From: Tubulanus polymorphus
Lineage: Eukaryota; Animalia; Nemertea
Length of the DNA stretch: 64,000 nt
Reading direction: 5' to 3'
NCBI RefSeq assembly: GCF_964204645.1
Contig: NC_134026.1
Location: 26,694,150 to 26,758,149 of the forward strand
Made by a program: the position numbers and the translations under genes. This document shows positions 966 to 64,000 of the stretch, piece after piece. The stretch's first letter is position 1. Every line of letters begins with the position of its first letter. Under the pieces are notes generated by a model, which was not told the DNA's origin, searched no databases, and saw nothing but the letters and a program-made list of their open reading frames with translations.

Positions 966-3900
966 TTTGCTTCCCCGTTTCGATGCCTACAAGTTAAAAG
1001 AAAATTAACCAGATTATAACTCATCTTTGTGAATCAAATGTATTGAAATGGCGATTTGAAAAAACTTACCTTGACTTGAGAATTAGCATTAGAAAACAGT
1101 TAAGTAGTAGCAGTAAGTAGCTCGAGAGTAGATTGCTTTGTAATCCGTGTAGATTCAGGTAAATTTTAGCACGAACACAACATCGGTTACTGACAGTTTG
1201 CCGCAGTTATAAACATAACATCAGAACATAAAAATGAATAGTAGTTTAGACTCTACCTGAATGAATTCTTCTGTTCGTATTTAGATTCTGATAACGTTAT
1301 CTTCAATCGCCGAACGCTATCGACTTACCGACCAGTCATAATCCTACAAGTAATTTCACACTCTGTTATGATGATGTTTAAACTTTCAATGTTGCGCGCA
1401 CGTAATGTAGCGGCATTGTTTAAAAGAAATGTCATCATCGGTCATCAATTGAACAATCCCGCCCGACGCTATATTCCTGTCTAACTTCACCGCAGTCGTG
1501 TTTATTCTCTGACAAATACAGTTCTATTTGTTCTGTTCTGTAATGTTTAGATTATGAATTTCTGTCATGCGTTCTCATTATGATTGGCTGCAGTAGGTTA
1601 TGATGGCGGTCAATACTGAATTGTATGATTTCAGTTTGCTCAATTTTATCATTCTATCACTGCAGATATATATACAGAAGACAATCAATTGTAACTGACA
1701 ATTGATGCTCCGTTGCTTAATATTTGATAGACATATTGCGATTATAACATCCATCCGTTCTGGTTTATAAGTCCTCTCTTGAGTATTCCTAAACATTTCA
1801 TCCATCTGTTGCCTGTCATTTCTATTTTTCATTAACCATCCATGTTAAGCTCATGAAGTGATATCATTACTAGAATGAATGCATATCCGTATTGTTCTGA
1901 ATGTATGAACAAGTATTTGAAAAATATCGTAAATTAGTTTGCCGACATCAATAAATAGATATTCGTCGTGCAATCGTTAGGTCAGACTAATATTATCGGG
2001 GTGTGGCTTGGCTCTATGAGGAGTGTTATACAGGCAGGAATAGAGTTGGTTGTATTTTAACAGCCTTCGCATTTTTGTGAGATACTATTAATCTGTTTAA
2101 AGCTGACGCTAAAATTTATCATTTCTAACTGTAAACAACCTCGTGTCACTGGTTTATCATGAGATAATTGAACTATTTGAAATATCAGGGTGATATATAT
2201 GTAGTTGAAATAGCGAATAACTGAATTTAGTTGGATCTGTATTTGTCAGTAGGCTGGTATTGTGATAAGTGCAGAGTTATATATTCCCAACATCGAATGA
2301 GTGAATATAAAGTCTTGATAGCCATGTGTTGCTATACTGTTATTAATCTAATTAGTGGACTGAAGTGATCTAGAAATGACTCCAGATGAATTACCATACT
2401 GATACTGCTCAGTATGAAAACAGAAATGATGTTATTTCACATGCGATGGAAACACTGAAAACCTGTAATTAGCAACAAGCGAATCTAGAAAAAATGTGCA
2501 TTAAACGTGTTTTTGTAAAGAGGTATTTGAGTAATATTTCATCGAAACATGGAATTTCTAGTGTTTTATGAGAGACGTATAGAAACTTACATTTATGGTG
2601 ATCCCCTCTTAGTGATACATGTGTGCAGGAAAATAAAGAGGTTTTTTATTGCGAAGTCTTTTGTTACCCAGCTGGTACTAGTAATAATGAAGCGTTACAG
2701 TCCCTATGCTGGTATAAAACTCATGTCAGATTGTAGCTGCTATGGGTTTTCAGTCATTTAATGATTGTTTATTGTTTGTCACTCATATTGTACTTTCCAA
2801 TGAGACACCAACAGAATTTGGCAATCAGAAAACTTGTGTCGACAAATTTAGTTGTTTACTGTAATTTCTGATTCCCAGTCACTGTTTATCATGGCATCCC
2901 CAGTCTCTTATTAATTGGATTGGTTTTTTGGCTCGAGGGAATTACTGCACATCTTTTTTTCAAAGAGTTGTCACGTAACAGCGGCAAGTGAATCAACTAC
3001 TTTTACCAGTACCTCGGCACTATCTTCTTGCTTCGCCGAGTGAGTGATACATGATTTCATCGTATAGTATCCGAAGCTATCATTACATTTTGATGAATGA
3101 GAAAATTAGAACTTGTATGGTAGAATGTTATCTATCATATTTCAGTTGGTCATGCAAGTTTCTCCTTTTCTTTTTATTTATTTACTCGTACACGTGTAAT
3201 GTGCTTTTCTTTGAACTAACTGGTACAAATAGAAAATGTCCCGACAGATCGAATTTAATCGGTTGATTAGATTTTGAAATTGCTTCACTACGTCGGGAGA
3301 GATTAATTACAAAGCGTTGAACACTTGAAATCAATTCGCGGAATTTGCATAAAACCCATAAACGGGAGTAATTCTTTCGTCTGTGGTTTGTAGAACATCG
3401 AGATAAATTGAATTAAACATAATCCGATGTATGCACCGCGCTAGTATTAGCGCCGCTATGGCTAATGTAGAGTGTCTCCTCACTAATAAGGTTAAAACCT
3501 GATGGGCATATCCAACTAGAGATTACACTGTAGAGCCCATAGACAGGATTCTCACCGGGGAAGCTTTAAAAGTACAGATTGTCAGTAGTGTTTTGTTCAT
3601 CGAAGCAAAGCAACTTTATTTTTTATTTTTTAAGACATCACAGAAATGAATCGTTTATATTTAGTCCAGAGTATCAATTCCATTATCATCATGAGAGGAC
3701 TGTCATCTTTCATTTATAAGTTGCCAATAGCTTCATATTCACAATTTATGAATTTGCAATTCTAATTGATATATTCTGATCATGTGTTCTGTTTAGTGTG
3801 TGAGAAGATGATTTGTATCAATATATACATCGTTTAGCTCAGCACATTTCTCAGTACGCTCCAATATCCCTAATGAGCTCTCAATCATAAGACTTCATAA

Positions 3901-6900
3901 ATATAATCATTCATAGCATCATTGCAAATTGATTCTGTATTAATTAGTTCGTGCCTTTAATGATGAAGTTTCAGTTTATATTTCTCATTGAATTGGGAGA
4001 AATAGTGTTTAATGATTTATAAAGTCGATATTGACTTGATTTAGGGACGGATCGCAACGAGGAGATCATTAACTTTACCGATATCTAATTTCCTGGAAAC
4101 ATCGATGTTTTTCAAAATTCATGATACTTTGGATCAGCCATCTATAAATCGAATATATAGACCAAAAATATGAGAGATTTGAATGTTTCGCTGGACATTA
4201 TGGTCAGAGTGAGTGAGCACGCATTCATTATGGTTTTATATTCATTTTATTACCCATTTATAGTCAATACACCACTAATGAAACATGTTCTTGCGGGGTA
4301 TCATTCAATTGTATTTGACATCATTCTGACTAAATTTCATGCTAAATTGCGTGAGCGTTCCAAAATACGAAGACCATAATGAACACATGAAAAAATGTGT
4401 ACATCGCTTGCATACTAGTTCTATGAGTGACACCGGATATTTTGTGACACTAGTTAGTCATCAATCTTAAACAAAAACCCAGTGACTCTAATCCCCTTAA
4501 CCAAGCAAGGAAGTGTTACTATACAGCTTCTTTTACTAATCATGCTTTAAGGCTTCGTTTGAGTTTCTTATCTTAATCTCATATTTATGAAAGGGATAAA
4601 AAGGCAATGATAACTGATGCATTTTTCATAAGCCGGAATAATGTTGCCTAGTGATGATGTGAGAAAATAAAAATATAGTAGGAAAGGCGTTACCTGCAGA
4701 AACCTTATACACTCATTATATATATGAGACACATACATTTATATATATCTAGTATGCTTTCTACATGATTGTATTGCTTTACAATTAATTAATTGTTGTA
4801 ATGATGATACCTCATTACTGTTTGCATCTCTATACCTCTATATCACCTTATGAACATGATACGCTAAAAAGTATTGCGTAATTTGATTAACTCTTGCAAG
4901 GTTAAACTTCGTGACCAATTTCAACCTGAATATTCACCTCAGTTAGTTACTTTGTAATGACTTACCCGTATGTGAAGTGAAACGAATATTCCGTGCACTT
5001 ATTTGAGATCATTGCCGATGCTGCGTATGAACACGACTGCTGATGGTGGCACTTTATGACTGAGACATTGTGCAGTCGTAGCTTTAACGAGTTTACCTTG
5101 TCTTTCTATTGGTTCTCAGAAGTTCACCATGTGAAGCTTACGATTCAAAGAACCCGAATCCTGTTTGCTGAGTTCAGTTATCTCGTGGATTGAGATATGT
5201 TTAGTATTGATGATGCACCTGTGTATCTCACCTATCTGTTACCAATGCGTAACAACAACATGCGATGCGTATAAATCTGAATTAACTTAATCTAGAATTG
5301 TAGTAGCTACAGTTGGTGGTAATCATTACCACTACAGTTTACTGCCACTATTTTCAGGTGATAGAGTACTTCCAATAAATGTGGTAACGAAAATCCATAT
5401 CACCATACAAAACTTCCACCCTCAATATCTGCATTGATGCTTTCAAAACAAAGGCATTTTCTAAACTAAGATTATACTTTTAAAGTATTGGGTAATGTCG
5501 GGTTCTGTGCGATATGTTTACGCCTCTTAAAAAAGATTCTATGTTGACAAGTAGTCACTGAATCAATATTGAAGTTAGAGACTTGACATGAAGTACAGCA
5601 TCGGTCTTCGGAGAACGGTTCTTCTTCTCGATGTCATTTCTGTGGAATGGTAAGTCTTAGAATTGAAAGACTTTTACTTCTTAGAAATATTTTGAGTTTT
5701 CGTATTACGGAATCGATGTCAAGACGTAACTTAAAGATTAGCAAAAATTTGTATACTTAATCGAATAAATTGTCAACACATGTTGCAAGAGAAATAAATT
5801 TCTATTTTATTATAAGTTTGATAGTGGTCGGGTACATATATTTTTCGCCCCAGCTGATATTGAATCAAGCTGTTGCATTTTGATGATTTTAATCTGGACT
5901 AGAGGAAAATGTTTATTGCTAAACGTGAAGTGAATACTGAAGATTCCACTTAGTTCATTGAGATCACAGCAATAATCAATTTTGCTCAAACCTAAACTGT
6001 TTGAATTGTTTTCTGGCTGAGAACAAGTTGCCGGTAACATAAGAAGACTTCTTGTTGTTGAATGAATAAAAGATGACGAATCTCCATGGAGAACTGTGTA
6101 CCCCTCAAAGATTGTTGATTCTTGTTGTATTCAGTCACTACCTATGCTTCACTATTCAGCATGCATGTCATTCTTGAAGTTTTTTGTTAAAACAGGATGA
6201 GCTATTTTCGATGGCAATATGGAAATTCCTTTCTTGTTTTCATCTGTTCTTCTAAGAACGTCTGCTATAAGATGCCGTTACGTACTGATTTAGAAGCAGC
6301 TATTGTTCTCGTTTCAATCATTGTTCTGTCATTTTTCATATATTCGCTGATGAGTCTGCAGAAAACTGCTGCCGATAATGACGAGCCGCCATCAAGTTGA
6401 AAACATCCGCTTTCTCATCTCGTATGTCTTTTTTCCACTAATTTACTTAGTGTTCATATATACTTCATCCATTATCGCAGTTTCCTGTGAGATCATGATT
6501 AGTAATTATTGTCACACTAACTATTCTATGTCTCATCTCTTCCTGCTGCTACCCTTGATTGGATGTAGCTTACAGTCCCGCCAAACATTGATTAGATTGT
6601 TTTAAACGACAGAATTCATGCATGAATCTATTCTGTCGTAGTAATTTTAAGTTGGCATGTTAATGGCATCCGTCCATGAATTTACGCGCCCTCTTTAAAG
6701 AATTCATCTTTCGGTTGATATCGGTTGGAGTTCTGCACTCCGATAAACTACAAATTATCGTCGGAGATAGTAATGAATTCTCAATTCCTCTCGGGGTCGA
6801 TGTGAAAAGTTACTTCAAATCATTTTTTTCTATCACTCCTCTGAGTGAAGCGGAGTTGTTGCGCAGTCATGTAAACCATTGAAAGAACTCGGGTAAACAA

Positions 6901-13939: not shown

Positions 13940-14596
13940 TTATACGAAGATTGTTGTTAAAGGAATGACTAGAGCTGAAATGATACTCAAGGTGAGATAA
14001 AATTGATGGTTTTGATTCGTCAAGATCGATATAATTAGCATATTGCATGTACTATTCATGAATTTCAATAAATACCGGCAGTTATGTGTTTCCCTATCGA
14101 TTTTTAGGTGGTTATGTCGCCAAGTGACCCACCCCAAAGCTTTGTTGATAATTTCTTGAAGTTATTAGCAGACAGAGATATATCAGACTTTCAGAAGGTT
14201 CTCGATATGAAGGTAAATATTATTTCATAATGAATGAATTGATAATTTATAGCTGGTGGCAATAAACACATAAACTTCCAATAACAATATTAGCATGAGC
14301 GGGTTAGCTTACAAATGGTTGATAAATGGTTGATTCAGGATTGGGTTGAGGACTAAGATGACATATGAAATCGATTAATTCTTTTAATCGTAGCTTTCTT
14401 TTGTTTCTAGGGACTGAAAAGAAGTGAACAAAATATGATGATTGAAATTTTCCGAACTCGAATACCTCAGATGCCGCCTAGTGGTAACAATGAGAATACT
14501 AATCATCAACTGCAACTAAAATCCAATGAAACATCTGTAGAACAAGAATCAAGTCGCATAAAAAAACTGGAGAAACTCATCAAAAAACGTTTATGA
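13940..14596 (+). CDS. VPS53: Vacuolar protein sorting 53 (GARP/EARP subunit), last three coding exons
   Basis: Exons 13940-13991, 14108-14212 and 14411-14596 give [17 protein letters not shown] / [35 protein letters not shown] / GLKRSEQ...[18 protein letters not shown], the characteristic VPS53 C-terminus. All junctions are GT-AG. No upstream exon was found in the window. Confidence 0.95.
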
Positions 14597-15230
14597 TAAC
14601 CTCATGAATGAAGTTAACCTGTTCAAAACTTGAAAAGTGAAAATGTGATGATCAGTTCTCAGTGTATGTTGATGTTGTTATGGAACAATTTTGTTAATTG
14701 TATATTGTATCAAATGTAAGAAAAATATTTATAATGCCGCCGCAAGACATCACTCATTGATTTTAAAAGTCTCTAGTCAAAAACGAAATAAAGAGAATTA
14801 ATTATTGTATATAAGTATATTTTTCTTGTATTTTCTTTAATGGAAAGGCACAAAGGAGTAGAACAGTCCTGAAGTAAACACTGGCATATCCTGCGATGCT
14901 TGATATGGGATGAGGGTATCCCAAGTTTGAAGCCCTGTTTACCGATAGGCTGAATCAAAAACTAAGCTCGAATAAAATCGCATCATCTATTTCTGATCGG
15001 CGGAGATAGGGCTGCCATCCTCGGCCCGCCCGCTGTCAGATACAATTGAATATTGAAGATCAGTTTCTGTCGGTAAATAGTTGGTTAATGGCGGCGCCCA
15101 TGAACCAGTGTACAACTCCCAAAAATCGGAATTAACAAGCATTTAGCCCAATCATAGACATTAAGAGATATAAATCTTGTAAATGCTAACAATATCGTTT
15201 GCTAAATTATCATAAAAGCTTATCCAAGGT

Positions 15231-16610
15231 ATGGTTTGGCGTAGGATAGCGTCAAAATTAGCGGCTACTGCCGGTTTAGTTTCTGGTGGAACTGCCATCT
15301 GGTGGTGTTCAGATAAAACTAAACAGCAAAACACTGTTTACGCTTCTTGGACATCAGGATTTGTACCAAGCGTCAAGTGGGACTTTAATTGGGATAGGTA
15401 AGTATGAAATGCTCAATGCTTCCTTTTATATTTGCCTATTAGGTTCTGGCAAGCCCTCGGCCTCTCTCAACAACATGTGAATACCACCATGAATTGTTTC
15501 ATTTGCAGACGGAATCCTGAAGACTTGGTGAAACCAGTAGAGGATAAGAATGACGAGGCTCAGATAGCGGAGCGAAAAAAGAAAATCAAGGAGCTAAAAC
15601 CTACTGCTGTGCGTCATTTGATATTGATAAGACATGGCCAGTATCACATGAATGGTTCAGACAAAGGAACATTGACATCGCTAGGTAGGCATTATACCGT
15701 ACTGCATGTAGATATATAATAATTGAAATCAAAAGACAAGTTTGTAACAGATGTTGATTATTACAGGTCAAGAACAAGCAGCTTTCACAGGGAAAAGATT
15801 GCAGGAACTTGGTTTTGATTATGATTTCATGGTATATTCTACTATGCCTCGAGCCACGGAAACCGCAGAAATCATTCATAAATTTCTACCTAATGTTGAA
15901 ATGACATCTTGTAATTTCCTACGAGAAGGATCCCCAATCCCGCCAGAACCACCAATAGGAAATTGGAAGCCAGAAGCACAAGTATGTTAAGTTAACCATA
16001 TCTATTATAATCAATCATCTGTATTTCTAAATCCTTGTTTTATTGATGCTAATTTTTAGGAATTCTTCGAGGATGGAGCTCGAATTGAAGCTGCATTTAG
16101 GAAATACATACATCGTGCTGATCCTAGTCAAACTAAAGACAGTTATGAAATTTATACTTGTCATGGGAATGTCATCAGATATTTTGTTTGTAGGTTAGTA
16201 TATATAGTTTATTCGTTGTTCTATAGTGTGTCCTATTTTCTCGTAGTTTTATGAAGATGGTGCTCGAATTGAGGCTGCATATAGGAAATATATTCATAGA
16301 GCTGATGCTAGTCAATCCAAAGATAGTTATGAAGTCTATGTATTTCATGCAAATGTCATCAGATATTTTGTGTGTAGGTAAGGTAATTAGCATTAATGTT
16401 GGTGTCTAAAACGATTTTGAAAGCATTCTGTTTATTTGTGCATGATTTATGTTTTTCAGAGCTCTACAATTTCCACCTGAAGCTTGGTTACGTCTTTCAC
16501 TACACAACGGTAGTATAACATGGTTGACTGTTAGACCTAATGGACGTGTTACATTACGTGAACTTGGTGATTGTGGACATATACCTGCAAATAAACTATC
16601 AACTTCATAA
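15231..16610 (+). CDS. PGAM5: Mitochondrial Ser/Thr/His protein phosphatase PGAM5, with a duplicated fourth coding exon
   Basis: Exons 15231-15397, 15509-15684, 15767-15981, [16060-16193 or 16247-16377], 16460-16610. Motifs: N-terminal hydrophobic anchor, WDFNWD, LIRHGQY (catalytic His), [43 protein letters not shown]. Confidence 0.96.
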
Positions 16611-43780: not shown

Positions 43781-44436
43781 ATATTTTCTAGTAAAATATC
43801 AGTCAGAGTTCAATTCCTTCATTCATTGGGCGAATATAATTCCATGGGTATGGTTTTTAGCACGTCAATGTAGTGCCAATTCGTGCTTTCTTTTGGAAAA
43901 AATTTGTCAAGGCCCTGATTTCTGATAATTTTTCACAAAAATGTACGTCAAAATATGCACCTTTATCTTGGAAGTTAACTGAATATTTGTCATAGCATTT
44001 AAATAGTGGCCCGGAATAGTTGATACTCTGTATTGATCAGTATTGTAGTAGATGCATCTAGATCCAGTGATGATATCATTACTGAAGTAATTTTTTTACA
44101 CTTACTACCGGTATATATGAAATACATAACATCCAACTCCGATATCACTCGGACACATTTTATGGTCCCAAAAGATTTGACTTGAGCGAAGTCTACTGTA
44201 CATCACGACTGCGATGAGTAATAACTAATTCAATACTTAATCCTCACGTATTTGAGTTTACAATAAAGACACGATTTACATAAAATTTGTTTATTACTTC
44301 CAGAGATACTTTACAATGATAAATACAAAATGAGAAACAGTACAAAATTCAATTCACAATGCTCTCCCCATACTTTTACATGTAGTAAGATTGCACAAGC
44401 ATGTCATAATTCAGTGAGCGATTGTCTTTCAGTAGT

Positions 44437-47199
44437 TTACCATGAAGGTGCGGTGTTTGCTAATCGACGCATTCGCCTAAAAATATAAAATAGTTCGTAT
44501 TCAGAATTCTGAAAGGTATCAACATTCGACATGTCAGTACACAGTATACATAGAGGATGTACACACCTGGTGTTTCTGTCTTGATCTCTGATCTTTTTCT
44601 CCATCTCTGCATCTGTCAATGACTCGAGGAATGGGCACCATTGATCTGATTCATTCTGATTTCTAAATGCCAGTTCTATCTGTGGTAATGGCGCTTCACT
44701 GAAACATATTTACATTATTGTAATTAAATCAAATGTACTGTAGTTTTACCATTAATTCTACAATCATTCACTACTACTCTACCTAAATGCGTATGTTCTT
44801 TGGTGCCAGCTCAACTGTCCACGAATGCTGTATGCTATTGATGTTACAAATTCACCTCCAAGACCTAAATGGTTAATTACAATAAACCCTCGAGTTACTT
44901 ATTTCAAATATACAGAGTTAAAAGAATTTCTTAGTTCTTAATTACCTAATTCAGCACAGAGTTTAGTTGCAAATTCTTCGGGACTATTTTCTGGTTCAGA
45001 CATATCCCATTCAAATTGATCAACTAACGATATATTTCCCACATGGATGTTCAACTGAAAATATAGGTAACATACATCGAAAATGAATCTTCTAAAAAAG
45101 TGATATATGTGATACCATGGATTAGAGTCCATGGTGATACAAATGAAATTCGTCATTACTTTTAAGATAACCCTTTGATCCAACTGTTCTTCTATAATGT
45201 TATCTGCTGGAAATGCTTCAATCTGTTGTCTGATTGCCTGAGCTATGGCTGCCACAAAATTCATCGGATTTAAATCCAAATCATCGCATAGAATCTCGGC
45301 AAATTGTTCTGGAGTAATCAATGTTTCTAAAAATACAATCAATTTACATAAAATCAGGAACATCTTATACAATTAAATAAAACATTTCGAAATAAAATGC
45401 TTGTTGGTATTGATATATTATTACCATTTTTATTCCATGTGAAACAATCTCTGAGCTTTTGACCTTCAATTTCCATATCGAGTCTAATTGGTACAAGAAC
45501 CTCAGCCTGACGGGCATTTTCATGCATTGCAGCTGGATCCAAGTCATCAAAACTGTAAGAAACATAATATGACAACATAATGTCATTCTTCAACCAAAGT
45601 CAAGGTTTAGACCACTATGATACTTACCACAATGGGAATGTTCTCATCTTATTTTTGGACATTCGATTACGATTAATTGGCGTTGAACAAGGTACAGCAT
45701 CTAAATGATGTGAACTACTGGGGACAGTGGGCACCCAGTTATTACCACGTTTGTTTCTAGATTTACTATCGCTGAAATAAAGAAGCACAATTATCTCTCA
45801 TTATCATAGATTCATCTCTCTATAGAGAATGAGCATAATTGACAAATATACCTAGCAGGCGTCTGATCAGCTCCTACTGATACTGCCTTGTATTTATCAT
45901 CCCTTCCTTCGAATATCTCATCCACTTCAGACGCTTTTAGTAAAGTGATATTTGTAGCTAGGGTATGCTGACCAAAACCAGCTGCAAAATTAAAAGATAA
46001 GATTTACATATATTAATCTAATTGAAACAACTGAATGGGGTACAAAATACTGAATAACACAAGAAATGGAACAACAGAGGCTGAAAAAAAAACAGCTTAT
46101 CATGCTAGCTAATTACAGTCATACAGAACTGCTGAAATATTATTGGCTGCCCATTCCCATCTAATAACTAACTGTTGAATATATGATATTAAGAATTAGC
46201 GAAGCAATTGAATGACTACATCTTCAAAGACAAATATTCTTATGTTAGTAAAATAACCATCACTTTAAGATGATGCAGTTACTCAATAAGTAATACTTCT
46301 CAAGAAAAGACACCGGCTAATTGTTAGAAAGCAAGAAATAATGTTTAGCATTTGATGAATAACACTTGAATTTTACTGCTCTGTATAAAGAGAATCGGAA
46401 TGATGCTGTAAAAAAACTGGGAAATCTAGATTATAATAGACTTCAAAACATTATTTTCGTATCAACTGACAAGCAAAGGGATTGGTTAAGATACTAAAAT
46501 GTCTAGAGTAAGTAATATTGTGTGATATGTTTGACTTTAAACCTACCTGCAGCTTTAACTGATACACCTGTAAAATGAACATATGTCAAACCACAGCCAA
46601 CCAAGCAATAATAAAACAAAGTATATAGAAGCAGAAAACAAAACTTCTAACCATGCAAGTATATTCACATGCTGTGTATGAATATATTAGAATTCATTGA
46701 GGGAAATTCTATGTCGATTTGTTTTTTAAGATATTCCTCACATGCTGAACACACACATCAATGTGACAAATATAGATAGTTAAATGTCTGTACCTAAAGC
46801 GGCTATTCTTTTTCTTTCCTCAACTGAAACCAATCTTCTCCACAATGAAGGATAACGTTTATACAATGAACCTCTGAACATTCGCAAATAATTTCCAACC
46901 TGTCGACGAAATAGAAGAACAAAGTTATGAATAAACAAATTCTAACAAAAAACTTATCTTCTTAGTCAGACTTAACTGTTTCAGTTAGTAAATAGTACGA
47001 CTGTTTTATGAAAACAAAGACCTTTTATCGCTGGTCTTATCGTGTTAACGAATGAACCATAAAACAACATATATCAAAATTATCTGTTAGTTACCTCAGA
47101 TCCGATGTAATAATAATCGCCATCATCTTCGATCTGGAAAGGGATAGGTTTTTCACCGAAAGTTCGAGTTCCACAAATTAACGAATTCGGCGTCGCCAT
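44437..47199 (-). CDS. SMARCB1: SWI/SNF core subunit SNF5/INI1
   Basis: Exon 1 47199-47095 [35 protein letters not shown]; exon 2 46899-46794 [22 protein letters not shown]; microexon 46567-46547; exon 45981-45852 [13 protein letters not shown]; then [46 protein letters not shown] and the C-terminus [19 protein letters not shown]. Confidence 0.98.
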
Positions 47200-47659
47200 T
47201 TTGAACTGTAGGTGGCGCCACATACGAGTACATATCCTCACTTGCCACGCCAGCATAAAGTGTAGCCGTAGTTTAGAAACGACTGTCAAACACACCCTTC
47301 TTACGTGATGAAGCGAAAGCTCGTATCTTATACTTAAATAGTTTACGTCCTTATTATCTGCCTCCACGTTTTACTGAAACGTAGGATTCAAATTCTTTTT
47401 GCTGAGGTTCCAGATGATCAAAAGGAAAAAGGAGTGTGCTAAAAGTTTAAATCCGCTGAGATTTGTCCATTCATAAAAAGAATTGTTAGATTTTATTTTC
47501 TTAAAACACAACAATTTATTGGGCTGCATCTATAGCTAAATTATAAGTCCTCTAATCGTACATTTCTATGACACAAATCATAGTTATCTTAATATCAACA
47601 CACTCTAGGTCAATTCATATTTTACAAAATGTTCATATTTTTGAAAAAAGTATCTTTGA

Positions 47660-48577: not shown

Positions 48578-51500
48578 ATGGAGAAATATGAACGCATCAG
48601 AGTAATTGGTAGAGGTGCTTACGGGTATGTAAAGCTTTTCATATTCAAAATTACTTATTGGTCACAAACAATACACATATCTGCTTGTTGGTGACGAACG
48701 AAGTTGTTGTGGTTACCCCCCCCCCCTTCTGGTAATAATTAAATTGTCCACCAATTTATTATATTTTCATATTTTCATAGTTCTAGAATGAATACTTTGA
48801 TATGTTACAGCACTGTTTACCTAACAAAGCGTATACATGATGGGAAATTAGTCATCGTCAAACAAATACCAGTTGAACAAATGACTAAAGATGAACGGCA
48901 AGCAGCATTAAATGAAGTGAAAGTTCTATCAATGTTGTCTCATCCGAACATTATTGAATATTATGAAAACTATTTAGAAGATAAAGCATTGATGATTGTA
49001 ATGGAATATGCTCAAGGAGGAACATTGTTTGAGTATATCCAACAGAGGAATGGTAATCTGATGGAAGAGGAGGTATCTATATTGAGCTTATAAGAAATTC
49101 TAACAATTGTTTAATCATGACTCATGATCCCCTAATTCGATTTTAAATTTTAGGATATCCTGAAATTCTTTGTGCAAATGCTTCTTTCACTGCATCATGT
49201 GCATTCAAAGCAAATTCTGCACAGAGATTTGAAAACGCAAAACATATTACTTGACAAGAAAAAGGCTGTTGTAAAGATTGGAGACTTCGGCATATCAAAA
49301 GTGTTAAGCAGCAAAAGTAAAGCGTATACTGTAAGTTGATATAAGTTGATATTAACTATTTCGAAGTTTTCACTAAACGTTTTTTTTCCTACTGTGCAAT
49401 AATCTTTTGCTCAAATTAATATATTGTAGGTAGTTGGAACTCCATGTTATATTTCTCCAGAACTATGTGAAGGCAAACCATATCCTTTAATAAAATGAAT
49501 AATGCTGTTGAAGCATATTGTGGAGTCTAGTTTAGAGAGTTATAACGAAACCTGTAAATTCTTTAACTTAAGTACATATAATCAAAAGAGTGATATATGG
49601 GCGTTAGGATGTGTTTTATATGAAATAGCTAGTCTCAAGAGAGCATTTGAAGCTGCTGTAAGTATTTTCTTCCTTATACAGCTTTTATCAATGTGCTGAT
49701 AGCTATGCATTAATTGTCCATGTCGTTGTTTATTGTCTAGAATTTGCCAGCACTTGTGTTGAAGATTATGCGTGGCACTTTTGCGCCCATATCTGAACAT
49801 TACAGCGAAGAACTGAGATCCTTAATCCTTAGTATGCTTCATCTCGATCCGAACAAACGACCAAACATTAATCAAATCATGGCTCAGCCCATTGTGATAA
49901 ATCATCTAATGAATCTTTACACTGATATGGGGAAGGTACCATCCACTCGGTAAGAACCTCGAACATATAACAGGGCATATAGTATGACTACAGATGAGTT
50001 ATGTTTTTTAAAAATGATTTAAACGATTTCAGAATCCATCATCCAATAAATGTCTCATCAACAAAAGTTAACAAACAGAAAAGAGTAGCAATTGCATCTC
50101 AACAGAAAGGTACTTTCAAAATCATCATTCTGTTTCTAAGATAATCCTATTACCTTCATATTATCGAGATACTGGTAACTATGTTTTCCTTTATTTTTTA
50201 GGGACAACTCAGAGCATTATGTCAGAATCTGAAGTAGTGAAGTACTTTACTCATTGTTCGATTTTCACTTGGGGTAATGGCATCAATACTCCTTTTCAAT
50301 TGCCTCTTCCGTCAGCTGAAATAGAGATTACCCAAGTTGCTGCTGGCCGAACTCAAAAAGCTGCTGTTACTAAGAGTGGAAGAGTTATCATCTGGGAGGT
50401 AGTCACGTTAAATTTTTGTCTGCATTTTATCGTCATCGAATACACAGTACTCGATACATTGTATCAAAATTTCAGGTATCTAGCATTGATTCTGAATCAC
50501 CATTACCAGGATCGAGTTATGTTGGACCTACATATATACCAAGATTTCTTGAGGGTCAATCTGCAGTTACTATTCAACATGTAGCTTGTGGAGACCTGTT
50601 CACCGCTTGTTTGACTGGTATGTGGATGAAATTTCCTACATTAATGCCAAATATTGAGACATATTCTTTATCAAACCATGATTTGTAGATCGCGGCATAA
50701 TGATGACATTTGGTAGTGGGGCTAATGGCTGTCTAGGTCATGGAAATTTTCATGATATCTCTCATGTAAGAAATCTTTCTACTGTTTGCTTCTTATTCGA
50801 CTGAAGATTGATGTTTCTATGCTTTATTCATTAAAATGTCTTATTTCAGGCTAAAATTGTGGAAGCGTTACTTGGATATGAAGTTGCTCAGGTTTCATGT
50901 GGAGCATCACATGTGTTGGCAGTCACAAATGACCATGAAGTATTTGCTTGGGGACGTGGGGAACATGGTATGTGTAAAAATGTATATTCTTTTGAGAATC
51001 AATTTTTTCTCCTTAAATTCAAACTTCTCCTTTATTAAACTGTGTTTTCATAGGTCGTCTCGGGCTTGGAAATAATGAATCATGGTCTGTACCTCAGTTG
51101 GTGGTTGTGAATGGAGATTTTGAACCTCAATCAGTGCAATGTGGTGTGGACTGTTCAATCATGATTACTACTGGTGGTCGGCTTCTATGCTGTGGTAGTA
51201 ACAGGTAAAAATTATCGAATTATATGACAAAATCAACGCAAAAATGTATTACATCAATGGGTGAGTATCAGGTACCAGTAATTCTTTTCTTAAAAGATTC
51301 AATAAGTTAGCATTAAATGGAGAAGAACAAGAATCAGTGGGAGCAAATTATTTCACACCAGTTTCTTCAAGAGGCTTCGATGATTTAAAAACTAAATCTG
51401 TTGCCATTGGTACATCACATACTGCTGTAGTTACAGGTAAAAATTTCATCATTCAGCTTTTGATTTGTCCTGCAACAAAGCTCAACGATGCAATGAATTT

Positions 51501-52087
51501 GTCTTTCTAGAATGTGGACAGTGTTATACTTTCGGTTCAAATCAATTTGGACAGCTTGGACATGATAATCCATATCCAAGTATAGTTCCTACACTTCCTA
51601 CTGAAGACATTACTATGGTTTCGTGTGGAGATACATTTACAACTGCTGTTACTAATGGTAATCAGTTTCGCATCATTCGTTTCAGCAAGATTTTTAACTA
51701 AACTTTAATCCATTGAAAAATCTTTCAGATGGCAAAATATATTCATGGGGCAAAAAATCAAGAGGAAGGCTCGGACGTGGCAATGAAAATATTACAACTC
51801 CGTCCGAAGTGAAATTACCAGTCAAAGAGATATTTGTAGTTGTTGACATGTCGTCAAGTCATAGCAGTACATTAGCAGCTACAAAACGTAAGTTCTCAGA
51901 TCACAATTATCACCGATATTTTTGGAGTTTCTGGAGGTTTTTTATCTCTTGTTTTGATATTTCAGCCGTCAATCGGTTAGTATTAAATGCCCAAATGCCA
52001 GTTGAAAATCACAAGCCAACACAGCACATTTCAACAATTACTGGCACGCAGTCTGATGATTTGGAAACTGTTTACGAAGTACACTAA
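48578..52087 (+). CDS. NEK8: NIMA-related kinase 8 (kinase domain plus RCC1 repeats)
   Basis: [112 protein letters not shown]; RCC1 repeats ([46 protein letters not shown]). Contains one AT-AC intron. Confidence 0.96.
49480..49575 (+). other. U12-type (minor spliceosome) AT-AC intron in NEK8
   Basis: 5' site ATATCCTTT, branch TTCTTTAAC at 49559-49567, 3' AC; removal restores CC|A (Pro) in [11 protein letters not shown]. Confidence 0.95.
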
Positions 52088-53128: not shown

Positions 53129-54734
53129 CTACATATTGCTTTCATATTCCATTTCTTCATCATCTGAAACGATTGAAAGCAAATTCATTAATTGATCAAA
53201 ATTCGGTAATACAAAACATAAATCAATGGATACCGGCAAGGCTACCAGGGGAGCACTGCATTCAGTGATAATCCGCCAGGATCGCTAGTGGCATCGGGTT
53301 GCCGCGCTTCAATTTTTTTCTGTATTTCAATTAAATTGGAATCAACTTAATCGATTTTCAGTGAAATCAATAACATACACTGAGTGAGAAAGGGAATGTA
53401 ACATCCGATAACAATTACCGTAATTTGACAATTTTCAGATTTGGAAGCCTAAAAATCAAGTTCAAATTTCATTGAAAATCAATTAATTTTCACTACGAAT
53501 AACTCGGTGTTGTGTTGCGCCATCTGTTGTTGCTGGTATCACATTGTTCAATATTATCTTCACTAACCTGCATGTCTGTTAAATGATGCTGATCCATTTG
53601 TGTGACTGCCGGGTACCTGACCAGATCGCAGCAGTTGTGTCAATCGTTCCACTTCTTCCAATGTCGTAGCATTAGCTATAGCATGTTTAATAGCACTGAT
53701 TTCTTCCTCTGATGGCCCAGTTTGTATTTCTGGTTGCTTCTTCTCTTGAATTGTGGCTCCAGGAACAAACGTCTTTGTTTTCTTAACAATATCTTGCACA
53801 AGTTTCTGACCGCGTTTTCCTTTGAACATCTGAGTTGCTGCTTCTCTTTCCTTCAAAAACAAAGCAAATTTCTCAAGAAACTTGGAAACATATTTTCGTA
53901 GCTTACAGTGGAATATAAACTGTACTTACCTTCATTTTTATCTTCCGGAAATCCAACAGCCTTAATTGTGGTAATTTATGTATCACGTACAATCTGTAAT
54001 GTTTCTTAGTTGACACTGGATTTCGCATTAAACTAAAATAACATACAACATTAATGGAACATATAATGACATGGAAAATATACATTTCATTCGTAGTTAT
54101 ATAAACCTTAGAGAGCTGAGTGTTTTTACTGTTGATAACACATCTATATCTCCCAGCTCTTGAATGTTGTTATTCGTGAGAATTATTGAATCAAGATGTG
54201 GCAAACATTCTTCCAAATTTTCACCGATTCGACTGAAAAAAGTCACAACATCTAGAGAACGATATGAAGCATTTCCGACAATGAAGCGATATAATATGCA
54301 TGATACATACACAACTCTGTTATTATTCAGCAGAACCGTTTTGAGTCGGTTGAGGAGTGGAAAACCATCTACTTTTCTGATATCATTATCTGACAAGTCT
54401 ATAGTATCGAATTGATCCTGTAAATGAAAATGAAAGAAGTCGATCAATTGACTTGTCAGCATTTTTTACTACATCGCAATCATAAATACAGAGTGAATAC
54501 ATACAAGCGTCGCTCCTAGATTTTCAATCACTGGAATTTTGTATCCTGAAATGACAATAATAAGCGTCATCGAAGTAATGTTAAATCGGTTTCGTTCAGT
54601 AATTAGTGCAACCGAAAACAATAACCGGCCGCGTTAGCTGGTCGAATCTTACCTCGTAAATCAAGTTCCCGGTCTCTGACTGGATTTGTGAATTGAGCAG
54701 ATTGTTCAATCAATTCAGGAGTTAATTTAACCAT
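53129..54734 (-). CDS. SNRPA1: U2 snRNP protein A' (leucine-rich repeat)
   Basis: MVKLTPELIEQSAQFTNPVRDRELDLRGYKIPVIENLGATLDQFDTIDLSDNDIRKVDGFPLLNRLKTVLLNNNR...HYRLYVIHKLPQLRLLDFRKIK...AIANATTLEEVERL; last coding exon 53163-53129 (DDEEMEYESNM*). Confidence 0.97.
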
Positions 54735-55232
54735 CGTGGAATATATCTAGTTGCCTTTTTAGTGCTGTTATTTCGTTCTGAAAACGCGCCGTGTTGTTCG
54801 GTGCGTGCACAATTCAAATCTTCTTTATTGCGTATCTACAGTGCTGCCATCTAGATAACACTATAATCGGTAACTAGACTTAAATTGGACTGGATTGGCA
54901 AACTAATGGATCAATATTCTCACAAATTAGTGTGTTTATAGCCTATTGGAAGGACAAAAATGCTTCACCTGCGTCTTATTTAATAAAGCTTGGTTAAGCG
55001 CATAGTTGATAGTGTCTGAAAATAGGTGTTAAGATCCAATATAAGGCAATAAAGCGTTGTTATACCCTTACTTTTTTTCCTAGGGGAGATTAGGCCTAGT
55101 GTGAAATCTATTTGGTAATCTTTTTCTTGTCAAAACTGAGATAATTGTCAGGCTTTCTTCCAAAGAACTTAAGTTTAGTAGAAATTTGCATGTATTTCCA
55201 GTTTTTTACACGGACACCTCAATTAGAAAAAG

Positions 55233-56737
55233 ATGATCCGTCGAATGAGAAATTATAGCGAAAGCAAGATGATTCAAAATCCTCACCTTCAGATACCAAC
55301 ATTGAAATGTACACTATGGACAGCTGTGGATTTACTGTTGATTTTGATTAGTAGGTTTTTCTTTGTTTATCAAAGTGTAATATATTTGCTGTTACCAAAA
55401 CATAAGTTTGATACCTCTGGCAATTCAGGTATATCCCCAATTATAGGTCAATCAAATTTATAAAGCTTAGCACCAACCATAGGTTGCTAACTAGTTTCTC
55501 ATCAGTGCTCTGGTATTATTCCTCATTTCCTACTATGTTCTTTTTCAGTGTTGTTGCTTCTGGCAGCCCTTGTTAATTGGACTACTATTGGCACAGTCGA
55601 CTTCCCATGTCAAAATCGTCAGAATTTACAGTATCCTTACATGGGAGATACAGTATCGCATTCATTGTTGTACGTAGTTGGATCTGTTGTCCCTGTTACG
55701 TTTGTAAGTGTTGTTGTATCGATTTGAAATTCCATCCAATTATTTGGATGCAGAAAATGCAATGTCAATGAATGATCAATTTCTTTTAAAGTTTTATGTC
55801 ACAGAATTAGCATCTGAATCTCACAGAGCGAGTAAAGATTATATTTGTGTCAGTTTAACTGAAGTTATACGAGTGACTGTATTATACACATTTGGTGCGG
55901 CTGTGACATTGATTTTTACTCATATTGGAAAAGTGAGTACGATGCGATTGCAACCAAATTTTCTGGCTACATGCAAACCAAACATTACCTTCTCAAATTG
56001 TACTAAAGGGTATGTATGTTTGTTGCAAGTTACTGTAATGTTGGTCAATTTATTTGGATCCATCTCATATTGTATTGTTTATTTATCTGTCTTTTAGGTT
56101 TACAAATCTAAGTATCGACAATTGTCAAAATAAGCAAGTCTACGCTTGGGAAATAAAATCTTCCTTTTGTTCATTTCCATCCGTGCATGCCGCACTTTCT
56201 GCTTACTCTATGGTGTATTTGGTTGTACGTATTAAGAGCATTCTGTAAATAGGAACTGCACACAAACCAGATGCTAAATTTTTTTTAAATTTTGTCTTTG
56301 TAGATATATCTTCAGGCTAGATTAAAGGTGACTTTTTCAGTCCTGTTCTGTCCCCTCCTGCAAGCTGGAGCAATATGCGTTGCGTACTATATTGCACTGA
56401 CAAGAATATCAGACTACAAACATCACTGGGTGGATGTCATTGCTGGTAGTTTTTTAGGAATATTGCTTGGAGTCTATGTGGTAAATTTGATGTTTTTCTT
56501 CATTTATTAGGTGAAACAATTTTTTTCTGTTTCAATCATTCCAATAAAATATTTATATTTTAACAGGCTGTCAAAGTAACCAACCTTTTTTACAAGAAAA
56601 CTAAAGCAGAAACCAAGACATCGAAATCTGTGGCAGTGTCGACGAATACAAGAAAAATGGGTAGTTCTATAGAAATAGGCGAGCATACACATCTGTTTGA
56701 TACTGTTGAATCACTGGAAGTTGAACATCCAGTTTAG
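55233..56737 (+). CDS. PAP2-family lipid phosphate phosphatase-like (PLPP/PLPPR-like) membrane protein
   Basis: Six exons; FPCQNRQNLQYPYMGDTVS, C1 KVSTMRLQPNFLATCKP, C2 SFPSVH, C3 TRISDYKHHWVDVIAG; multiple transmembrane segments; ends EHPV*. Start codon uncertain (several in-frame ATGs). Confidence 0.88.
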
Positions 56738-58155: not shown

Positions 58156-61357
<3,202 letters not shown>

Positions 61358-61749
61358 CGCGCAGACCCGGAAATGAAGGAAGGGGTGTGTGGCTATGGCC
61401 TAATGCCAGTCACTAAATCCTGATTTGAACGTTGCGATCAAATGAATCTATCAGGCTCGAATCCCACGTAAATCATCTACCTGGCTGGTCGTTCAGTGAA
61501 GGGAAGAGTTGAAGGTTTTGCTGCTGTTTTTGTTTCGAATTACAGAAAACATTACGTTTCATAGCTGCACTTCCTTCCAAACAAGTCATCTTTTGCAGCT
61601 GTTCGACGCCGACGGTACACACCAGCGCGTCATGGAAACGTCCAGGTCGTAGGGTTGCCATGCATAAGAAAAATCCATCAATTGTCATTCATATATATAT
61701 TAAGTGTATAATAAGTTGTAAGCTTATTTATTTCTATACCAATTCAAGT
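61358..61749. promoter_or_regulatory. Divergent promoter region CTH / CCDC169 with partial X-box motifs
   Basis: Start codons 392 bp apart; CATGGAAAC (~61631) and GTTGCCATG (~61654) lie on the CCDC169 side. Confidence 0.5.
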
Positions 61750-62717: not shown

Positions 62718-63400
62718 ATTGGTTGCAAAATCATCGATTTATTAAGAGTTTCATAAAATCAAGATCTATATATATATATATATTCTGATTGATAATATAT
62801 TTTTCATCTCAAGAATGCGTATACCGATACGTTTCTTCTCACATGGACTATAAAACGATTTAGAGTCCATCGTTTTCATAAGGAATCCTATTCGACTTAA
62901 CTCAATTATCTTGCCCCCCGAATTGCATAATCTACGTGAATGCATTCTTGTTATTTATCGCGTATTATGGCTTAGTGTAAATATATATAAGTTCCAGGAG
63001 ACATCAACCCAAGGAAACAATTTGCAGACTGCTTTGTATGACATGTTCCATTCAAACCAGTACTTCGTCTTAGTACCTGAAGTAGTTAAACGAAAAATAC
63101 GTCATAGCTATGATAAATTTAACCAACATTCAGGATATTATGAATACATGGCGATTACGAATGTCTTTTTGAAACATTAAATCGAAAAAAGCTTATCATT
63201 GGCTTGTACATGATATCTAGTCATCGTACATAATTCGATTAAAAAGCCATACACACGCTACCAAATTATGCCTGATTATTAAGTGCTAAATTCATATATA
63301 TATACAAAGCAAATGTCGTAGCAGTTAAAGTCAATTCTTTAGTGCTGAGTTATCCACCAGAAGCAGCAAACGAGTCTGTTTAAGCTTGGTTACGTGTAAG

Positions 63401-64000
<600 letters not shown>

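Follow-up and report, generated by a model that had tools for sequence, protein, structure and literature searches.

Exons 2 and 3 of alpha-tropomyosin are mutually exclusive through steric interference. Homologous mutually exclusive exons of this kind have also been described in OGDH (exons 4a and 4b; PMC7969005) and as an under-50-nt class (PMC5740500), and the accessible portions of both papers give the steric rule as a donor-to-branch distance under about 50 nt. In PGAM5, human and mouse transcripts vary at a NAGNAG acceptor that adds or omits Gln196 (PMC3250501, PMC2875228, both available in part). Human PGAM5 is named as a 3' wobble gene in PMC2875228, and the available part of the PMC3250501 supplement (Bradley 2012) gives the AVQYY/AVYY pair psi values of 0.35 to 0.72 over 16 human tissues (p 0.0089) and of 0.32 to 0.54 over 8 mouse tissues (p 2.2e-7). 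PGAM5 was not found under that name in the Drosophila table of the same source, as far as that table was available. The enzyme belongs to branch 1 of the histidine phosphatase superfamily (PDB 5MUF, 6CNL). The solved human chain that was aligned (3MXO, 6CNI) is the Gln196 long form, and no short-form or FHAN structure was present among the four PDB sequence matches.

The locus described here is the PGAM5 gene, encoding a mitochondrial phosphatase, of the ribbon worm Tubulanus polymorphus, in which the exon carrying the second catalytic His is present as two tandem copies, A and B. Like OGDH 4a/4b, as far as the available text on the latter goes (PMC7969005), this is a tandem duplicated exon of a mitochondrial enzyme, with apparently one copy per mRNA, a branch site that would be too near the upstream donor, and exons whose lengths are not multiples of three. 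Unlike the steric class as it appears in the accessible text of PMC5740500 and PMC7969005, in which the branch point is distant, the whole intron between the Tubulanus copies is short (53 nt); in addition, the pair is so far known in one genus, fixes an older switch of plus or minus one codon, and has the stop of the A+B product in the last exon. At the exon boundary, the likeness is to the mammalian NAGNAG, which lies at the same boundary, produces the same one-residue pair, and has both forms abundant (PMC3250501, PMC2875228, in part). However, the mammalian case consists of one exon with two adjacent acceptors and proteins that are otherwise identical, whereas in Tubulanus each form has its own exon and eight further substitutions separate them.

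The sequence-only reading of this DNA knew of no described PGAM5 exon pair of this kind. A full-text literature search, within whose reach most subscription papers did not fall, found no paper on a mutually exclusive PGAM5 exon pair, nor any cross-phylum account of the PGAM5 NAGNAG or of a NAGNAG split between duplicated exons. However, RefSeq lists both products, so the pair already exists in automatic annotation. As read from the sequence, what is new here is that the exon starts at the ±1-codon tandem-acceptor site, with A fixed long, B fixed short, and divergence around the second catalytic His.

Layout of the PGAM5 locus

The window, meaning the whole 64,000-nt stretch analyzed, contains the PGAM5 gene at 15231-16610 on the forward strand. 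The translated model is letter-identical to RefSeq isoforms X1 (P0131, 280 amino acids, exon A) and X2 (P0035, 279 amino acids, exon B), and it has the hallmarks of the PGAM5 family, namely the RHG motif, the second His, the WDxNWD motif, and the PGAM fold. The RHG motif, His230, and WDxNWD are common to isoform A and the branch 1 structures, and the predicted model of isoform A matches 5MUF with an E value of 1.2e-29 and an rmsd of 1.1. From their open reading frames, we take the neighboring genes to be Vps53-like (14100-14600), RIMBP2-like (17629-41000), SMARCB1 (44400-47200), NEK8 (48578-51895), SNRPA1 (53500-54740), PAP2-like (55400-56100), cystathionine gamma-lyase (58500-61360), and Src-like kinase (63400-64000).

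Six runs (X1 to X6), all in the form of contigs, were compared with the locus; contig depth is a poor measure, holes in contigs prove nothing, and rare variants are dropped from them. X2 and X5 are taken to be RNA on account of their GT..AG joints. Intron boundaries were taken from the contig joints, which place the end of intron 1 at 15508 (length, 111 nt) and correct an earlier boundary. An AG farther upstream in intron 1 (15408-15508, +), at 15441-15442, is in frame with exon 2 and unused, the contigs using 15509 only. The features of the gene are as follows.

15231 to 15397, forward strand: coding exon 1, from the start codon at 15231, N-terminal anchor to WDxNWD motif (joint 15397>15509 in X2 and X5; RefSeq isoform X1/X2 identity)
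15509 to 15684, forward strand: coding exon 2, with the RHG catalytic motif (joints in X2 and X5; RefSeq identity)
15767 to 15981, forward strand: coding exon 3, ending in the beta3-alpha3 loop, with the phase-0 donor common to A and B (joints; RefSeq identity)
16060 to 16193, forward strand: exon A, the long form, with an additional Glu187 where the human protein has Gln196, a CHGN pocket, and single acceptor TAG/GAA (joints 15981>16060 and 16193>16460 in X2 and X5; RefSeq isoform X1)
16194 to 16246, forward strand: spacer intron, 53 nt, likely too short for splicing, retained in some contigs, and required to hold the branch point of B (no joint across; X2 pieces run through)
16247 to 16377, forward strand: exon B, the short form, without a residue at the Gln196 position, with FHAN pocket, Tyr at human Phe208, and single acceptor TAG/TTT (joint 16377>16460 and loose ends matching 15981>16247, X2 only; RefSeq isoform X2)
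16460 to 16610, forward strand: shared last coding exon, with the alpha4-beta5 loop carrying the dimer-interface Phe, the C-terminal tail, and the stop ending at 16610 (contigs and RefSeq identity; interface from the available part of PMC5501728)

AG/GT ends and phases 0 to 2 are common to exons A (134 nt) and B (131 nt). The two differ by 9 synonymous and 8 nonsynonymous codons, which amount to 24 of 131 nt, and A has one extra first codon. The coordinates, splice sites, phases, codon-difference counts, and 53-nt gap of the sequence-only reading were all reproduced. The copies are adjacent, homologous, similar in length, equal in phase, and intact at their splice sites, as tandem-duplicate exons are; a comparison of the introns on either side of A and B turned up no leftover similarity (P 0.24 and 0.86). 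That both copies are maintained, as had been suggested, is upheld by two results. When 24 substitutions were placed at random, 8 or fewer amino acid changes without a stop occurred in 0 of 20,000 trials (mean, 16.7 changes), and the proposed dN/dS check, run as a pairwise comparison of A with B and not per copy, gave 0.14 (codon bootstrap, 0.05 to 0.31), with a dN of 0.108, a dS of 0.76 (bootstrap, 0.36 to 1.85), and no stop. Judged from these codon comparisons, both copies are under purifying selection.

Splicing of exons A and B

In runs X2 and X5, which come from two studies, GT..AG joints cover introns 1 and 2 and also connect 15981>16060 and 16193>16460, the latter two corresponding to the use of A alone. 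The joint 16377>16460, from B to the last exon, is present in X2 only. In the same run, the exon 3-to-B junction (15981>16247) appears as exact loose ends of 14 and 16 letters, equal to 16247-16260 and 15966-15981, and is broken by a synonymous T/A variant at 16261, inside exon B. B-only splicing thus comes from one run, with its upstream junction seen as loose ends only. Neither the A-to-B joint 16193>16247 nor the joint 15981>16460, which would skip both copies, was found in the six runs, two of which gave spliced contigs; X3 and X4 contained unspliced pieces only, and X6 contained nothing matching the locus. In the contigs, exon 3 therefore leads to A or B, and each leads to the last exon. 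The mutually exclusive use claimed in the sequence-only reading agrees with these junctions, with the use of A alone in two runs and of B alone in one, and with the listing of both products by RefSeq, and we hold it to be very probable that the exon pair is real, expressed, and mutually exclusive. X2 pieces at 16164-16260 and 16231-16276 pass through the spacer, and no X2 contig lies inside the flanking introns. The rough contig depths in X2 (exon 3, 87.6; A, 44.7; A-to-last, 32; retained spacer, about 25; B, 74.8) suggest that the A, B, and spacer-retained forms are all common in this run.

The spacer had been described as the shortest credible intron, and this held against a larger sample: its 53 nt lie below all 42 other introns measured inside the window (minimum, 71 nt), 4 of which were checked against RNA. 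These comprise the 4 other PGAM5 introns and 25 neighbor introns, which together range from 73 to 885 nt with 19 of 29 at 73 to 90 nt, and a further 13 introns from a spliced alignment of NEK8 to two homologs. The neighbor introns were anchored by reading-frame continuity in six genes, 25 of 26 being resolved and one SMARCB1 intron being left out. Two apparent NEK8 introns of 47 and 43 nt were left out, since the sequence itself shows them to be one 96-nt AT-AC intron wrongly divided. This U12-type intron of the NEK8-like gene (window 49480-49575, +) starts with ATATCCTTT, has the branch-like motif TTCTTTAAC, and ends in AC, and its removal restores the NEK8 kinase sequence seen in homologs.

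Since the spacer is shorter than all 42 introns and is retained in one run, it is likely unspliceable, and it is this that probably enforces the exclusivity of A and B. Against this, some animals do splice introns of Drosophila size, about 55 nt. Leaving aside that of the acceptor, all adenines of the spacer are at most 42 nt from the donor of A, which is under the limit of about 50 nt given for the steric class, so that A and B would probably not be joinable through any candidate branch adenine in the spacer; no YTRAY branch motif was found there. The acceptor of B scores 3.1, just below the range of 29 introns (3.5 to 13.0), and its donor is strong. Three other ways of keeping the exons apart were considered and found no support. 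U2/U12 incompatibility fails on donors of GT types without a U12 motif, and docker-selector or competing RNA pairing fails on intron duplex energies that fall within the range of shuffled sequences. The third, the frameshift-plus-NMD class, bears on an earlier statement that inclusion of both exons shifts the frame. The shift was reproduced, but the resulting stop at 16516-16518 (293 amino acids) lies inside the last exon and not upstream of the last junction; decay of the junction-based kind would therefore neither police nor remove double inclusion.

The one-codon switch at the exon start

The one-codon length difference between A and B, given only in passing in the earlier reading, was reproduced and is read here as part of an ancient, conserved splice switch. 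A one-residue isoform pair falls exactly at the exon start in 23 of 30 protein clusters, one other cluster being that of Tubulanus and 6 having no such pair; the clusters were mostly picked for "isoform" in the name and so are not a random sample. With two genera from search hits, the ±1-residue pattern extends to a total of 29 genera, Lineus among the ribbon worms being one of them, which from their phylum labels we take to span 8 phyla; it reaches from insects to humans. Of the 54 one-residue pairs among all the proteins collected, 52 have their difference here (41 Gln, 8 Lys, and 3 Val). In metagenome DNA, the motif was present in 64 of 80 loci, of which 6 have the preceding intron and represent 5 distinct gene copies; NAGNAG (CAGCAG or TAGCAG) was found in 4 of these 5, and two transcript contigs differ by the three NAGNAG bases. 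A fungal origin of the metagenome NAGNAG loci was dropped, as the loci look animal-like.

Neither Tubulanus copy has the tandem acceptor that is present in relatives. Each has a single AG, the acceptor of A (TAG/GAA) being without the second AG and that of B (TCG TAG/TTT) without the first. By its acceptors, the exon pair works like a NAGNAG but is not one. An ancestral NAGNAG start would have given both forms at Gln196, with A then losing the second AG and B the first, and we have good confidence in the resulting pattern, in which A appears locked long and B locked short and the pair fixes both forms of the ancient switch. Opposite locking has about even odds by chance and is therefore suggestive of selection, not proof of it.

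Other variants at this junction were observed. Metagenome locus L068, an animal-like contig, contains a tandem whole-gene PGAM5 duplicate (1577-3407 and 4510-5438), of which copy 1 keeps CAGCAG and copy 2, with TAG/GTG, is fixed in the long form; here too, in parallel, the switch was lost following a duplication. In ticks (P0233/P0325 and P0313/P0314), the two forms differ at this junction by a Val, a residue that has no NAG codon, so tandem GT donors are likely on the protein evidence; in ticks the switch may have been rebuilt by another route. In a further splice variant, Lineus isoform X1 (P0241), a basic insert of 20 residues sits at this junction, where the catalytic loop ends.

Divergence of the two forms and its likely explanation

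Human numbering follows an alignment to a 289-residue macaque sequence, which matches the human papers. The swapped exon corresponds to residues 196 to 239, that is, helix alpha3, strand beta4, His230, and helix alpha4. It does carry the second active-site His, as had been proposed, Tubulanus H221 aligning with human H230. A and B differ at the positions of residues 196, 198, and 208 and at four sites around His230. According to the available text of PMC6355839, Y198, E199, R209, and R214 contribute to the ring interface at alpha3, and Y198E yields mostly dimers with broken rings and halved catalytic efficiency; in the accessible part of PMC5501728, the loop, alpha3, and His230 shift in concert as the enzyme passes between its on and off states in catalysis. 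The motifs at the His site in 403 sequences are CHAN (336), CHGN (49), CHDN (8), FHAN (5), THAN (3), and CHSN (2). Several frog PGAM5-like paralogs (Pelobates and Leptobrachium; P0012-P0021, P0070, P0001) have CHDN, with Asp directly after the catalytic His.

The explanation that we consider likely is that the exon for alpha3, beta4, and the second His was duplicated in tandem, with either-or splicing likely due to the 53-nt spacer, A long, B short, and predicted differences in ring assembly and catalysis. Freed from one shared sequence, the forms would have become different at the Y198 and F208 positions of alpha3 and in the surroundings of His230, with A changing more than B. The subunits would co-assemble via the shared dimer surface, tuning dodecamer formation and activity. 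That the A and B enzymes are functionally diverged seems likely, at slightly better than an even chance, and this one gene likely gives the worm two enzymes that are tuned differently.

The best-surviving alternative, to which we give a minor but real share of probability, accepts the either-or splicing and regards it as functionally near-neutral, such that each copy supplies a needed share of the enzyme, the differences are tolerated drift, and chance accounts for the long/short split. The two isoforms share one fold in their AlphaFold models (pLDDT, 83.1 each), which do not demonstrate a functional difference, and Lineus lives with FHAN in all four of its listed isoforms. Four of the eight changes lie within six codons around the His, with a P of 0.007 for a window chosen there and a nonsignificant 0.15 for any window. 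Some authors regard NAGNAG splicing as stochastic, within a long-running dispute over whether single-codon NAGNAG splicing is functional or noise (PMC3250501, in the text available). However, the changed columns are almost invariant elsewhere: among full-length non-nemertean sequences, the Thr before Cys of A occurs in 0 of 334 and the Tyr208 of B in 1 of 334, Phe208 being present in 333. Likewise, the ±1 form is kept over what we take to be 8 phyla, and in mammals it is tissue-variable according to the accessible part of PMC3250501.

It is also possible, although unlikely, that the pair is older than the Tubulanus-Lineus split, with A having kept Cys, B having gained Phe, Lineus having lost A, and gene conversion keeping the copies alike. 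The five FHAN sequences are Tubulanus B and the four listed Lineus isoforms, for which FHAN is the sole form, and B equals Lineus at all four differing sites around the His, which an old pair would explain without a reversal to Cys. Evidence against this age includes a rare Tyr three residues before the His that A and B share (2% of others) and Lineus lacks, a dS of 0.76, which is unsaturated, and the ±Gln switch, which Lineus retains and B is without. The match of the Cys-to-Phe change of B to Lineus instead suggests that A is the derived copy. The form ancestral to ribbon worms is probably that of B, with A as the innovating copy, which probably regained Cys by one base change; convergence, like an older pair, would be a less likely source of the match with Lineus. 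The earlier idea that each copy keeps a different ancestral neighbor of the His gives way to this polarity. A tree of the 43-residue exon with 19 rows, in which Lineus is the one other nemertean compared, does not settle the order of events. Apart from Phe itself, the shared core showed no nemertean-specific residue that might compensate. Among 362 proteins with both flanks, no second exon-swap pair was found in the best 25 of 36 flank-matched pairs; only Tubulanus has 8 differences, and the others have 2 or 3 and are cross-species, allelic, or annotation pairs by name.

A redox switch, with the Cys beside His230 acting as an oxidation sensor in A and being lost from B, had been put forward in the sequence-only reading. 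This Cys adjoins a catalytic residue and stands beside the His in 334 of 334 full-length non-nemertean sequences. However, the literature search found no redox role for it, and in the available text of PMC11873611 human C229A keeps phosphatase activity that is still inhibited by punicalagin and the reactive Cys is C239, whose equivalent is kept in both Tubulanus copies. The proposed role is unsupported, and we consider it improbable.

Dose control or a truncated product is very unlikely to be the main explanation of the pair. In this reading, the spacer-retained transcript (16194-16254, +), common in X2 contigs despite its predicted decay signal, would be degraded or would yield a 250-residue protein ending where human PGAM5-S does. 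If both exons were kept, the spacer would stay in, with a stop at 16252-16254, 123 nt before the last junction, making the transcript a predicted decay substrate. The contig depth of the retained spacer, about 25 compared with about 45 for A, favors such a product, as does the human short isoform record P0366, which diverges right after the same exon: with reference to human PGAM5-L/PGAM5-S, the retained form would part from the full-length protein at this same junction, following the Cys of alpha4. Unlike PGAM5-S, it would arise by intron retention, carry a predicted decay signal, and encode a putative protein. Moreover, retention may reflect unfinished pre-mRNA. A designed membrane tail was rejected, because its hydrophobicity, rare against random windows (0.5%), is ordinary for read-through of real introns, where 5 of 55 stop-free intron frames match or exceed it. 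Finally, an assembly artifact or pseudo-exon is practically negligible, given that both copies are spliced and show the dN/dS above, that an unspliced 30-kb contig of X1, with 8 single-base differences, spans the whole stretch in one piece and so makes assembly error an unlikely cause of the tandem, and that X2 and X4 also bridge it.

Returning to the tandem duplication of a switch-bearing exon, the pair alone is an ordinary kind of splicing in one genus. Its interest is that it ties the NAGNAG of what we take to be 8 animal phyla, whose two forms are each used at about 50% in human and mouse tissues, to an oligomer interface that has been mapped, in an enzyme that has a simple assay and regulates mitophagy and cell death in humans. 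The locus is a natural experiment in which the long and short forms lie on separate exons and have diverged at the active site. More tentatively, and with less than even confidence, we propose that the ±Gln196 switch may have been a functional tuning device since the bilaterian ancestor. It would shift the loop-to-alpha3 register that controls ring assembly and activity, mixed rings would set the output, and the switch would have been rebuilt by donor shift, probably, in ticks and by exon duplication in Tubulanus, letting the long and short enzymes specialize their pockets. If this is true, about half of human PGAM5 would be a structurally uncharacterized short form with different properties.
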